Of a stretch of DNA of 64,000 nucleotides, positions 5,955 through 30,216 are shown one piece after another. This DNA comes from Octopus vulgaris (taxonomy: Eukaryota). The translations under genes were made by a program, and so were the position numbers. The number at the start of each line of letters is the position of its first letter. Position 1 is the first letter of the stretch. Where the stretch lies: contig OX597831.1 of the NCBI GenBank assembly GCA_951406725.2, positions 7,254,001 to 7,318,000 of the forward strand. The letters are read 5' to 3'. The notes below the pieces were generated by a model, which saw nothing but the letters and a program-made list of their open reading frames with translations, did not search any database and was not told the DNA's origin.

Positions 5955-6065
5955 TCTGACAGCTGTTTCGGCCGTGAGGACAAGTATGCCTCATTTAACC
6001 TATAAGCCATATAAGGCAGATATAAATGAGACATTAACAAGGATGTCCCACGGCCTCTTCAGAGA
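5955..6065 (-). ncRNA. Type I hammerhead ribozyme motif with extended stem II, probably in a Penelope-like element pLTR fragment (about 5770-6150)
   Basis: Minus strand reads TCT-CTGAAGA-GGCCGTGGGACA...TGTCCTCACGGCC-GAAAC-AGCT-GTC-AGA. Canonical CUGANGA and GAAA cores, GUC triplet, palindromic stem III, downstream AATAAA. Confidence 0.75.
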
Positions 6066-6159
6066 ATTTAATTTATTATAAGTGTGAAAACATTTTTTTA
6101 CATATAAATATAAAAATATAAAATATAAAAACGTGTGCATAGACACTCATAATACTATG

Positions 6160-6224
<65 letters not shown>

Positions 6225-6809
6225 TCATCATCATCATCATCATCATCAGTTAATGTCTGTGTTCCATGCTGGCATGGTTTGGATGGTTTGACAGAAGCTG
6301 GCAAACCAGAGGACTGCACCAAATTCTGCTGTCATGGTTTCTGGGTGACCTACCCTCATCAGCCAAATGTGGATGTGACGTAGTCAAGGCCCTTGACAAA
6401 GTGGAATAAGAGATTTTATGTCACAAAGTGCATGACCTTGGTATCACTGGAAAACTAGAAAAGTGGTTGCATGACTTTTCAAAAGGCAGAAATCAGACAG
6501 TTGCAGCCAATGGTTCTCTCACCAATTCTCAGCAGAGTCCTTCAGAGAACTGTATTGGGACCACTACAGTTTGTGGTGGATCTCTCACACATGTCCTTAG
6601 CCATACAGTCAGCCACTCTCACCAGTTCTGCTAATGATACAAAAGTATCACGAGCAGTCAAGGACCCTGATGACATCCTAAAACTGCAGAAAGACCTGAA
6701 TGCAATGTACAACAGGGCTGAAGAAAATAACAAGCAGTTCAATGCTGGAAAGCTTCAAGCAATTTACTGTTGACCTATGAACAGACTATAGTGAAAATAC
6801 ACAGGAAAA

Positions 6810-7215
6810 GGTGCAGGAGTGCCTGTGTGGTAAGTAGCTTGTTTACCAAACACATGGTTCCGGGTTCAGTCACACTGCGTGGCATCTTGGGCAAGTGTCT
6901 TCTACTATAGCCTCGGGCCGACCAAAGCCTTGTGAGTGGATTTGGTAGACGGAAACTGAAAGAAGCCCGTCGTATATATGTATATATATATATATATATG
7001 CGTGTGTGTATTTGTGTGTCTGTGTTTGTCCCCCCAACATCGCTTGACAACTGATGCTGGTGTGTTTATGTCCCCGTCACTTAGCGGTTCGGCAAAAGAG
7101 ACCGATAGGATAAGTACTGGGCTTACAAAGAATAACTCCCGGGGTTGAGTTGCTCGATTAAAGGCGATGCACCAGCATGGCCACAGTCAAATGACTGAAA
7201 CAAGTAAAAGAAAAA
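6810..7215 (+). mobile_element. SINE family A copy inserted in a LINE
   Basis: Matches 35438-35815 along its length. Confidence 0.88.
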
Positions 7216-7671
7216 GAAAAGAAAAAAAAAAGGACCAGGGAGCAGTGCAATCCCAAAGTCAGAGTTGGTCCATGACCTGGGAATTCACGTAAGTAGTGAT
7301 GCAACATTCCATGTGCATATAAGCAAGATGGCAACATTGTGCATGCGCATGGCTGGTTCGATTCTGATATCATTCAGAACCCGGAAAAAGGGACCCCATG
7401 CTGCTTCTATCAGGAATCTTTTTCTCAGTCATCTGGATTCACTGCTTCCAAATGCTGTCAGCTCAGAACTTTAAACTAAGAGCAGAACTCAAGGCAATCA
7501 TCCAGCACTACCACACAAAGAAGATGGACTTGGTGCAAGAGACGAGCAGCTGGGAAGGCCGAAGGAATTGAGTTTCCAAAGGAAACAAAACTAAAGCAGA
7601 CTTATGCGTGTGGCGCAAGAATAAGCATTGAGGACAGACTTTATGAAGGAGAGAATTGCTAAAACAAGGGA

Positions 7672-26721: not shown

Positions 26722-26976
26722 TGCAGCGTGGAAGGTGTTTATAAGCCATTTAAGAAACACACAAAAACCGTTAGATTCACTTCAACATTTAAATTTAATT
26801 TTCCAAAATATTTTCGTCACTTTGAGACCGCGACCTGTTCACTGACAAAACTTCAGTGAACAGGTCGCGGTCTCAAAGCGATGAAAATATTTTGACAAAT
26901 TAAATTTAAATGTTGAAGTGAATCTAACGGTTTCTGTGTGTTTCTTAAATGGCTTATAAACACCTTCCATGCTGCA
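26722..26976. mobile_element. Fold-back element: two about 124-bp inverted arms around a 7-nt loop, each arm with a hammerhead-like motif
   Basis: 26722-26845 is the near-exact reverse complement of 26853-26976. Confidence 0.85.
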
Positions 26977-29676
26977 ACTGTTTTCGTTCCAGCATACGAT
27001 CTCAGATCAAGTCACTTGCTATGCAAGTACATTTCTGTAACATTTAACAAAGAAAAGAGGTATAATAACAGTAAAACAAAACTGTACTATTTCCTATCTC
27101 TTTTACACTTTTTAGCAACTCTTGATTAATTCTATAATCTTTTATAATAATAACTGGGCAAGTCTCTCACAGGAGTAAGACGATCCTTCTGACGGATGGG
27201 TAAATACATAATTTCATTCTCTCATGCATGACAAGATAATTCCTAGTAAAGTTTACAGCACACAACCTCTTAACATTGCTTCAGATGATGTTTAGCTCTT
27301 CATAACATTTCAAAAACGCTAGATGTAAAGGAAAGCCAAAGAAATACTAAAGCAGCCCAGAATATGGAATTAATATTTTCTGTAACCCAGACAATGGAAT
27401 CAGAGCTGGAAATGGTTAAAGTAAGAGAATAAGTAAATCAGGAAGGAGAAAGGAAGAAAGAAGTTTAAAGAGCAGTTACTATGACATGAGCAGAGGTTTG
27501 ATCAGTTATGGATGTGTTGGAGGCTAAACAACAATCAACCGTTTAGCATTCAGGTTACTGACAAATGTTTTGCTTATTTATTCACATGTAAAAAAAAAAA
27601 AAAAATTAATTATGTATTATTTTGTGGCTTAGAGATTTCAAAAATGTGACAGTTTATTTTTAGAATGACATTGTATGGTAGGTGTGAGGAGCTGGATCTG
27701 GTTAGTTTGAACATAAAGTAAGTAGAATATTTGGGTTGGATATGGCTGGATTAAAAGCTAATGGATTAATGGTTTGTTTTTTTACCTCTCTCTCTTGTGA
27801 AAAACAAATTTTATTAACCATGTAATTAGGAAAGTGATGCAACTTGGAAATGAAACAGGGTTACTGAAAACAGAAAATCTGTAAAGTCTAGGGAGAAATA
27901 AATAAAGTACAGCTCATTGGATGAGATGACATGTGAAGAGACAGAGCATAAGGAAACCGAGAGTTGGTCTGGACATGAGATGTGAATGGACAACAAGTGT
28001 TGACTGAAAACCACCCTGTACTAACTGTTGTATGTAGCTGTGGCACAGAGAAATGGAACAAGAAATGAGAAAAAAAAAGGATAAAGTCGGAAGTTCAAAT
28101 ATAGGATAGCAAAAATCAAGATGGTGTGATGCTGTAAGGGACATGTGAAACCCATACCAGCATGACAAAAAAGGCATCAAAACGATAATAATGATTGATA
28201 TAAGTAAGGATTATCAACAATGTTCACATTTGTTCTAATAGTACCAATATCTGAGATACTGGAAAACCTCTCCAATCAACAAAATCTGACACATTCAGAA
28301 ACAGGAGAAAAAAAAAAAAAGTTGCTTGAATAAGCAAACCCCTTCTTTGCTACCACTTTTGATTTGATAAGAGCCAATGAAGGCACCTGAACCTGCTGGA
28401 AATAACAGCCAAATCTCCCACTACCTTGTAAAAGGAAATAAACACTGAATTATGTACACACACACACACATATATATAATCACCATGACCAACCAGGCTA
28501 TCAGATGTTGCTACACATTGCTGGTCACAATGTTGATGATGATGATGATGAATGTGCGTTTTCGCTCAATAAACACTCACAATGCTCGGTCTGTGAATCG
28601 AAACTGCGATCCTACGACCGCGAGTTCGCTGCCCTAACCACTAGGCCATTGCGCCTCCACACATACACACACACATATATATAAAGGATAGGAGTATGTG
28701 AAAAGTTGTTTAATAAATATAGATTATTGTTCAGACCAGATCAAGTAGCTGTGATGTTAGAGTATAAACTTCCCAGATATCAACCTTTATATATGAAGAA
28801 CTACCATGGACTTTAGTTTCCCTATTGTTGTCTTGCTTTTCTGCTTATTATTTATTTATGTTCACTTCTCTGTAACTAATTCACAAATGCTTTGATGACA
28901 TTAATAACTGCCACTATATATCACATGTACAAAATGTTCTATGCCTGCATAAAAGATGGGATGGTCACAAATGGACAAATGGAATGCTTTTCATCACAAG
29001 TCTGCTCTCTCAGAGCAGATACAGACAATCGTTTTTTGAAAAATTGTTTCTGACATCATCACAATAACATTCACTTTTCTAAACTTTCAGACTCCATTGA
29101 TCTTACTTTCTCTTAATCATCCCCCACCCTGCAACAGATAATTTTTCACTAATATAAATCCTGTACCAATTCCTCAGAACCACTCAATGAACCTGAAATC
29201 ACCTTCCTAACTGGCTAATACTATTATTCCACGATCCTTATCTAAGTTCAGCCAGCCAAGTTGAAACATAAGAAAGATCAGAAAAATACCAAATTCATAA
29301 AACCAGAGTTTCAAAAGTCCCAACCCAAGGACAAACTTTTAAAGACAACTCCCCACTCTCACACATTATCAAAAAATTAAGAGAATTTCAATTATGAAAC
29401 AGTCTTATCTTGCACCTCCTTATCACAATCATCTGTTTCAAGATTACAATGGGATTAAGCTAATATGTGTTGGAGATTATTCCATGCCATTTATGAAGCT
29501 TGGATGTTTCTGAACAGCTTCTCTGTATTTGTCTTATAATCTGTCAAAAGTCTCTTTACTTTCACCTTAGCCAATATCTCTTCAGTATCACACATCAAGC
29601 TTCCCCTTTCTTTATTCGTTTCCATTATGTTTCTAATTAGTTGACATAAATTTGGTTTTCTAAATGCGAAACTCAC

Positions 29677-29815
29677 CCGTCAACATTTAGTCTTCCAACA
29701 ATTTCCCTTACTGTAACAATGAGGCTTTCATTTTCTTGAGGAGCTTCCAGAATGATGCAATGCAATTTCGCCATATAAGAATCAATAGTTTCTAGTGTGG
29801 GTACTTCGTTGGTTC
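29677..29815 (-). CDS. HMG20A: HMG20A/B-like exon 9 (G-TNEVPTLETIDSYMAKLHCIILEAPQENESLIVTVREIVGRLNVD-GG)
   Basis: ExPTxxTIDSYMxxLHxII...PQxNE...TVRE matches the HMG20 C-terminus. Acceptor tgtttccag. Ends at GG|GTGAGT, which also reads GGG TGA if unspliced. Confidence 0.93.
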
Positions 29816-29959
29816 CTGGAAACAACAGAAGAAGAACATTATGACAAAATATAGAAAATAGTCAAAAAGTTTGCATCAAATTGCATGAAATAATATAAAT
29901 TGTATTTCGTTTTTGGATTTGGTTTGCAAGATTCTTTATATGAGTTCGTGTGTTGAAGC

Positions 29960-30216
29960 ATATTCTGTTGTGTCTGGGGAGAGTCTTTTTCTTTTTGTGT
30001 CTTATTATTTAACGCACTCACCGGTAAAATTTCCACTTTTTTCTTATTTTTATTGTCCTAAAATTTTCCAGAGTCAAAATTATTGAAAAGGTTGCAAGAC
30101 GCAACGAAAATTTTAGGACAATAAAAATAAGAAAAAAAAGTGGAAATTTTACCGGTGAGTGTGTTAGATTATAAAGCACAAAAAGAAAATGACTCTCCCC
30201 AGACACAACAGAATAT
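29960..30216. mobile_element. Fold-back element: about 110-bp inverted arms with a 37-nt spacer, inside the intron between HMG20 exons 8 and 9
   Basis: ATATTCTGTTGTGTCTGGGGAGAGTC...AAATTTTC (29960-30068) mirrors GAAAATTT...GACTCTCCCCAGACACAACAGAATAT (30106-30216). Confidence 0.85.

Follow-up and report, generated by a model that had tools for sequence, protein, structure and literature searches.

Penelope-like elements (PLEs) are known to carry minimal type I hammerhead ribozymes, and Cervera and de la Pena (2014, PMC4209133) have described examples with a U3-A8 pair, an extra base between positions 9 and 10.1, and a palindromic helix III. Natural covariation between positions 3 and 8, like that described below, has been reported for U3-A8 hammerheads (Perreault et al. 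2011, PMC3088659), where U3-A8 alone is named and C3G was not found in the available text, and an engineered C3G/G8C exchange partly restores cleavage in the PAc Poseidon hammerhead (Frangieh et al. 2024, PMC11167929). Inverted 5′-truncated copies and one-sided tails are hallmarks of the host elements (Craig et al. 2021, PMC8557442), the tail being the stretch between two reverse transcriptase (RT) start sites (PMC11167929). Here, we analyze a stretch of 64,000 nucleotides from Octopus vulgaris (assembly GCA_951406725.2, contig OX597831.1, positions 7,254,001 to 7,318,000 of the forward strand; hereafter the window), in which an initial annotation had proposed that three unrelated repeats, called families A, B, and C below, carry hammerhead-like cores with covarying N3-N8 pairs.

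The three motifs are probably the 3′-end hammerheads of three PLE families, in which a compensated 3/8 pair likely preserves self-cleavage. All three are present at the positions first annotated, and each displays the type I hammerhead layout (N3-UGA-N-N8-A, GAAA, and U16.1-H17 joined by stems I and II) together with Watson-Crick complementarity between N3 and N8:

5955..6065, minus strand: hammerhead A, C3-G8 core at 6062-6056 (sequence and descriptor match)
26799..26849, minus strand: hammerhead B, mirror arm, G3-C8 core with G3 at 26842; 7-bp stem I with one mismatch
26853..26899, plus strand: hammerhead B, plus arm, G3-C8 core GTGAACA at 26856-26862
30080..30116, plus strand: hammerhead C, U3-A8 core TTGAAAA at 30083-30089

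Hammerhead A combines stem I TCT/AGA, the core CTGAAGA, a 7-bp stem II with a long paired extension, GAAA, and UC, with the palindrome ACAGCTGT as helix III and a predicted cut between 5958 and 5957; the palindrome ACAGCUGU of A is 8 nt long, and the extra base after A9 is absent. In the plus arm of B, an extra G (G9.1), a 5-bp stem II, GAAA, an AATATT palindrome, and UU precede a predicted cut at 26892/26893, and the inversion junction truncates the 5′ strand of stem I to 3 nt. Hammerhead C likewise has G9.1 and a 5-bp stem II, followed by an AATT palindrome, UU, and a 3-bp stem I, with the predicted cut at 30113/30114. The B and C copies in the window show decay: the plus arm of B has U11.1 and just 3 bp of stem I, the mirror arm a G-A mismatch in stem I, and C a U-G wobble in stem I. 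At the family level, B and C both possess the palindromic helix III, the extra base 9.1, and G10.1-C11.1. The expectation that variant cores would escape a CUGANGA search holds for B (G3-C8) and C (U3-A8); it does not hold for A, which is a canonical CUGANGA core (CUGAAGA) and the only one of the three sites with a literal C3-G8 pair. An Rfam scan of the window (124 matches at E ≤ 1) returned no hammerhead family.

In folding predictions, stem II of A is formed, and the minimum free energy folds of natural B, C, and D monomers (family D is a further relative introduced below) contain stems I and II. In cofolding, A alone is predicted to form a dimer helix III; the 2-4 kcal/mol gained by dimers of B, C, and D comes from other pairings. 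The assignment of the window motifs to PLE-associated type I hammerheads with a minimal or short helix III is supported. The hexamers AATAAA or ATTAAA, said by the initial annotation to follow each motif, do lie near B (26899) and C (30120), and for A the first such hexamer after the cut site comes at a distance of 109 nt; as family D carries AATAAG and the hexamer background is 18% per 120 nt, the hexamers are uninformative overall, and the idea that they are poly(A) signals was discarded.

We evaluated the N3-N8 relationship against chance at several scales. On the window alone, a loose descriptor gave 10 matches compared to 4.75 ± 2.6 in shuffles, and 5 compared to 1.3 ± 1.2 when N3 and N8 were complementary, which is a modest excess. 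A stricter type I descriptor, with N3 and N8 left free, was then applied to 100 unselected 10-kb stretches (a random 1 Mb), where 23 of the 24 matches were complementary (14 C-G, 7 U-A, and 2 G-C) and one was mismatched; five shuffles of the same megabase yielded 1-4 matches (about 2), with 0-1 complementary. Relative to a background complementarity of 0.244, this corresponds to a binomial p of 1.5e-13 for 23/24, a value to be read with the caveat that copies of the same family are not independent. Across 352 collected sequences, enriched for A, B, and C, the 239 matches formed 24 clusters, of which 21 were complementary, including 11/11 of those with at least two members (7 C-G, 3 U-A, and 1 G-C). 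MAFFT put the 3′ halves of the hammerheads out of register. At the scale of the genome searched (2.8 Gb), where the first-look candidates numbered 2383 for B, 2153 for C, and 1302 for A, exact 17-nt core-context matches numbered 6,746 for B and 5,121 for C (controls, 0-1); these carry the family pair, G-C in 6,746 of 7,447 B-context matches and U-A in 5,121 of 5,677 C-context matches, and about 9-10% deviate from it. The covariation originally proposed is, at the level of sequence, real, with C-G, U-A, and G-C all occurring in homologous scaffolds.

We note as a separate observation that several more U3-A8 hammerhead families, unrelated in sequence to C, are found (L057, L188, L172, L282, L086, and L139), and that one cluster mixes a U3-A8 member with C3-G8 members.

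Linked open reading frames (ORFs) for RT and GIY-YIG endonuclease were found upstream of the hammerheads, in line with the proposed PLE association. For A, window positions 5706-6177 are 91.5% identical to the 3′ end of locus L092, in which the hammerhead is preceded, at a distance of 2.5 kb, by ORFs for RT (with a DKT motif) and a C-terminal endonuclease of GIY-YIG type; RT with DKT and a C-terminal endonuclease also occur upstream in L095. For B, a 671-aa RT-endonuclease ORF in L289 ends ~1.1 kb before the hammerhead, and ORF ends occur in six further stretches (L277, L278, L279, and L281-L283). For C, a same-strand C hammerhead lies downstream in 19 of the 30 best endonuclease matches, and the C ORF has a Pfam GIY-YIG match at E 2.8e-4, just under the curated cutoff. 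RT was recognized in these ORFs by its motifs and by homologs; among named proteins, the one closest to the B protein is from Octopus vulgaris (57% identity). The B and C ORFs have a CX3CxxC linker, internal cysteines, and a CCHH-type C-terminal endonuclease, as in Neptune/Nematis-type elements, whereas the L092 ORFs and flanks of A have Hydra-type marks (DKT motif, no CCHH, and a (TA)n target). The linker of A in L092 reads CNFRNGNKC, with the first linker cysteine not seen, and RWK was not seen in copies that all lack the N-terminus; another family, in L177, has a CxC linker. Judged by these motifs and homologies, A ends a Hydra-type PLE, and B and C end Neptune-like PLEs.

The description of the three repeats as unrelated does not survive this comparison. 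Endonuclease identities are 84/175 for B-C, 88/180 for B-D, and 96/179 for C-D, and A can barely be aligned to B, C, or D; B and C, given their identity and a shared clade at 100/99 in the protein tree, are sisters whose hammerheads and tails are homologous, and only A is distant. The same is true of the suggestion that the repeats are non-autonomous PLE- or retrozyme-like elements. All three are 3′ ends of families whose ORFs indicate autonomy, the short window copies are 5′-truncated insertions, and none is a retrozyme; tandem noncoding hammerhead arrays, the mark of retrozymes, were found neither at the three sites nor in the family loci examined. Every upstream stretch examined was 5′-truncated or inverted, and no complete unit of ORF between pseudo-long terminal repeats (pLTR-ORF-pLTR) occurred among them. 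Animal non-LTR retrozymes (bioRxiv 10.64898/2026.07.22.740005) resemble the present motifs in that their type I hammerheads come from PLE pLTRs; they differ in being tandem noncoding repeats, whereas the octopus copies are single or head-to-head and come from ORF-bearing families. Beside A, further Hydra-type PLE families are seen in L097, L144, and L171, with a C3-G8 hammerhead, a long loop II, and an 8-nt palindrome 0.2-0.7 kb behind the endonuclease.

The insertions in the window have the following anatomy:

5772..6177, minus strand: family A, 5′-truncated Hydra-type PLE 3′ end flanked by microsatellites (approximate limits)
26702..26715, plus strand: left copy of the probable 14-bp target-site duplication of B, an identical 14-mer at 26702 and 27041
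26722..26976, unstranded: family B, head-to-head inverted pair of 5′-truncated Neptune-like PLE 3′ ends, palindrome centred near 26850
26977..27040, plus strand: one-sided PLE tail of the B insertion, on one arm only, resembling the tails of C, D, E, and F
27041..27054, plus strand: right copy of the probable target-site duplication of B (14-mer repeat)
29892..29903, plus strand: left 12-bp target-site duplication of C, AATATAAATTGT at 29892 and 30212
29904..30211, unstranded: family C insertion, a left one-sided tail (from 29904) and head-to-head inverted 5′-truncated Neptune-like 3′ ends
30212..30223, plus strand: right target-site duplication of C, repeat of 29892

Six nucleotides separate the left duplication of B from its left arm. 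The B arms and tail are predicted to form a hairpin of -209 kcal/mol; the C insertion, in which the right arm alone keeps the hammerhead core, is predicted to form one of -168.5 kcal/mol. As such long hairpins would sequester the ribozyme, the B and C copies in the window are likely dead or inert products. Among 30 C loci, the inversion point varies between copies, the tail of ~55 nt lies on the left only in 18, on the right only in 9, on neither side in 3, and on both in 0, and flanking duplications, mostly of 11-15 bp, occur in 18. The marks of endonuclease-positive (EN+) PLEs, that is 5′ truncation, an inverted 5′ copy, and a one-sided tail, are thus all seen.

Full C palindromes in L105, L107, L111, L112, and L114 (5/12 loci) share one centre at a small natural palindrome, GAC-AGA-GTC, just upstream of stem I, which suggests fold-back priming of complementary DNA at that point. 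A composite repeat of ~2.2 kb, present as near-identical copies on many contigs (L003-L030), has taken up a B palindrome. In L217-L246, a branch-point-like ACTAAC, a pyrimidine tract, and CAG lie ~25-45 nt upstream of the B core, a string that recalls the intron end beside the Drosophila virilis Penelope hammerhead.

Family D is a third Neptune-like family, very young and of high copy number, with its hammerhead motif present 35 times in 30 loci (L334:2392-2436). Across the Neptune-like families the scaffold is homologous (an extra G after position 9, a 5-bp stem II, and similar tails), and the stems of B, C, D, E, and F are preserved through compensatory changes, with C3-G8 in D and F, U3-A8 in C, and G3-C8 in B and an old family, E. 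Family F shares the inner stem I and stem II of B, yet has C3-G8, with a Neptune-like endonuclease upstream in one of three loci; the C3-G8 matches in B context (19, with 0.7 expected) belong to this family, which excludes them as B revertants. Relative to B, E differs in N7, loop II, and palindrome length and shows a compensated exchange of G-C for U-A in stem I, with G3-C8 kept. A3-U8 was considered as a fourth natural pair and discarded as decay: the pattern search gave 11 matches, and the 10 loci examined were 6 decayed B copies, 3 copies of old family E, and 1 of an old C subfamily in which, among the 11 loci listed of 15, A3-U8 occurred only in the query and a near-identical copy on the same contig. 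All 35 D copies listed have C9 in place of A9, and older D relatives (L131 and L160) keep A9. Metagenome contigs provided 42 loci with related ORFs, 8 of them with a hammerhead, and all 8 were complementary (6 C-G, 2 U-A, and 0 G-C); no hammerhead was found in the other 34 loci, most of which have little or no 3′ flank. One metagenome relative, L402, combines U3-A8 with C9.

In the protein tree, B, C, and D group as (B,(C,D)) at 100/99, their sister being a C3-G8 element (94/95), and in all bootstrap trees U3-A8 needs three changes and G3-C8 one; the tree has four rows under half filled and a long outgroup, and was built without E, F, or a named Neptune or Nematis reference. On this basis, C3-G8 is likely ancestral, with three or more origins of U3-A8 and a single one of G3-C8 in the relatives sampled.

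These observations can be accommodated in a mechanism inferred in part from published PLE work. In full or tandem transcripts, the palindrome of a minimal hammerhead would pair with that of a second copy and complete helix III, probably aided by the protein of the element, and cleavage would follow after U17 or C17. The RT-GIY-YIG protein would target AT-rich or (TA)n DNA for nicking, and reverse transcription would start inside RNA downstream of the ribozyme at two sites, giving the one-sided tail; nicking and internally started reverse transcription together would leave truncated, often inverted copies. Residues U4, G5, A6, G12, A13, and A14, the A15.1-U16.1 pair, and a non-G17 are kept across families with ~50% identical proteins. 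Extending the argument, we consider it quite possible, while short of probable, that the G3-C8 core has been a working ribozyme over a long history (from old E to young B, in thousands of copies), and that its sisters with C3-G8, U3-A8, and C9 form with it a natural active-site mutational series in one scaffold that tunes cleavage rate, a large class missed by CUGANGA and Rfam searches.

Several points weigh against the preferred reading. Conservation within B is no more than suggestive; positions at least 5% variable there number 1/43 among structural and 17/167 among other positions (Fisher p 0.13; an incomplete table from the assembled contigs of four public runs), the single variable structural position being a wobble-keeping change. 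Mismatched G3.G8 occurs in 241 copies (C3.C8 in 20). These copies are scattered over many loop subfamilies, and 27 of the first 100 share one loop type on contig C16 (1.7-10.6 Mb), a cluster that is probably local duplication; the overall pattern fits recurrent mutation and local duplication more than a spreading lineage. When N3 and N8 were left unconstrained in E context, 357 matches resulted; the first 100, some of them B copies, comprised 55 G-C, 19 A-C, 5 G-U, and 2 A-U, so that A3.C8 alone accounts for 19/100. U17 is common to all three Neptune-like families, C9 replaces A9 in the young D subfamily, and G3-C8 is based on one origin. The clades were named from motifs recognized by eye and from homology, since Pfam found no family in three of the four ORFs scanned (RT families being absent for both the B and the A ORFs) and a further Pfam scan gave nothing significant. 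Finally, in the one PLE tested, that of the anole, insertion in vitro was unaffected by hammerhead mutations, ribozyme activity depended on protein, and RNA-seq had no ends mapped to the cut site (PMC11167929).

The anole insertion and RNA-seq results are also what one would expect if the hammerhead-derived structures were kept for folding or protein binding, for example to place RT start sites, N3-N8 being a structural contact and cleavage in vivo slight or absent. In vitro cleavage by metazoan minimal hammerheads is inefficient (PMC4209133), G3-C8 gives partial rescue at most (PMC8495972), and the youngest family, D, carries A9C, all of which would fit such a role. Nevertheless, the core residues listed above are conserved across families whose proteins are only ~50% identical, and the N3-N8 pair belongs to the catalytically active fold (PMC3088659); we regard a purely structural role as unlikely, if deserving of attention. 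Much less plausible is that G3-C8 in B and E is a founder accident, in which a dead ribozyme was fixed in a master copy, cleavage was dispensable, and complementarity arose by chance. The single G3-C8 origin on the tree, the complementarity of a quarter of random pairs, and the hundreds of mismatched copies are compatible with this, but reaching G3-C8 from C3-G8 requires two transversions, the pair persists from old E to young B while N7, loop II, the palindrome, and outer stem I changed with pairing kept, and a complementary majority is found in every multicopy hammerhead family (the 11 multimember clusters). That B and C are foldback DNA elements, or resemble miniature inverted-repeat transposable elements, with an incidental hammerhead likeness is scarcely credible and largely refuted by the ORF linkage, as the long near-perfect inverted repeats with flanking duplications that invite this idea are identical in sequence to 3′ ends of RT-endonuclease ORFs, differ in inversion point from copy to copy, and have a one-sided tail.

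Set against the described systems, self-cleaving 3′-end hammerheads of PLEs, our preferred reading, would be largely familiar. The metazoan PLE minimal hammerheads of PMC4209133 share with the octopus families the type I order, the short stem I, the 9/10.1 extra base, and G10.1-C11.1, as well as a palindromic 15.2-16.2 or loop 3, the position behind the ORF, and opposite-strand pairs, and one Schistosoma mansoni row in that paper has a UUGAAAA core identical to that of family C. Differences are that the extra base after A9 is G in the octopus families compared to a consensus H, and that the 56 representatives in Fig. S3 of that paper include no G3 (53 C3-G8, 2 U3-A8, and 1 U3-G8) and no cephalopod. 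With the Neptune/Nematis EN+ PLEs of PMC8557442, B, C, and D share a C-terminal GIY-YIG, a CX2-5CxxC linker, and two cysteines within the GIY-YIG core, as well as the inverted 5′-truncated copies and one-sided tail; the octopus tails are longer (~55-65 nt compared to 30-40), and, unlike in those elements, the ORF is followed by a microsatellite-rich untranslated region and then, at 0.5-1.1 kb, by the hammerhead. Family A is like the Hydra-clade PLEs of the same paper in DKT, a C-terminal endonuclease without internal cysteines, the (TA)n target, and a canonical hammerhead, and unlike them in an Asn-rich insert, its 2.5-kb 3′ region, and the L092 linker.

The PLE hammerhead system and U3-A8 are thus already known, and the gain is incremental. 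What appears new from the sequences is that a G3-C8 core occurs naturally and has lasted long in a single homologous scaffold shared with C3-G8 and U3-A8 sisters, in thousands of copies in the octopus where the Poseidon exchange was engineered. For a natural G3-C8 hammerhead, the literature searched gave only engineered swaps, a scope that does not take in Lünse 2017, which is the largest survey, or the first supplement file of PMC4209133; no octopus PLE hammerhead was found in the literature searched, and the B and C core-context strings are absent from the Craig 2021 supplement (PMC8557442).

Elsewhere in the window, the following features were identified:

5138-5430, 10452-10900, 13412, 23333, 39106, 45973, and others: abundant SINE-like (short interspersed nuclear element) repeat starting at (ATC)n, at least 11 copies, 67-bp tandem units
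15734-15805, minus strand: transfer RNA-like sequence, perhaps a SINE head (Rfam, 34 bits)
35825-36181, plus strand: open frame with an HMG-box-like exon
57462-57597, minus strand: U4 small nuclear RNA gene (Rfam, 121 bits)
62520-63209, minus strand: long interspersed nuclear element RT fragment, presumably RTE-like

Given the HMG-box-like exon, which we take to be HMG20-like, a host gene probably extends across the window.

If the G3-C8 and U3-A8 cores cleave, evolution would have confirmed, within natural scaffolds that are homologous, the tertiary 3-8 pair that structures and engineered swaps have revealed. In that case, hammerhead censuses based on C3-G8 would also undercount, as 9 of the 24 matches in the random megabase are variant cores. 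The sister families would then serve as natural constructs for the role of PLE hammerheads, in which slow and fast cores may be compared with the success of the families that carry them.

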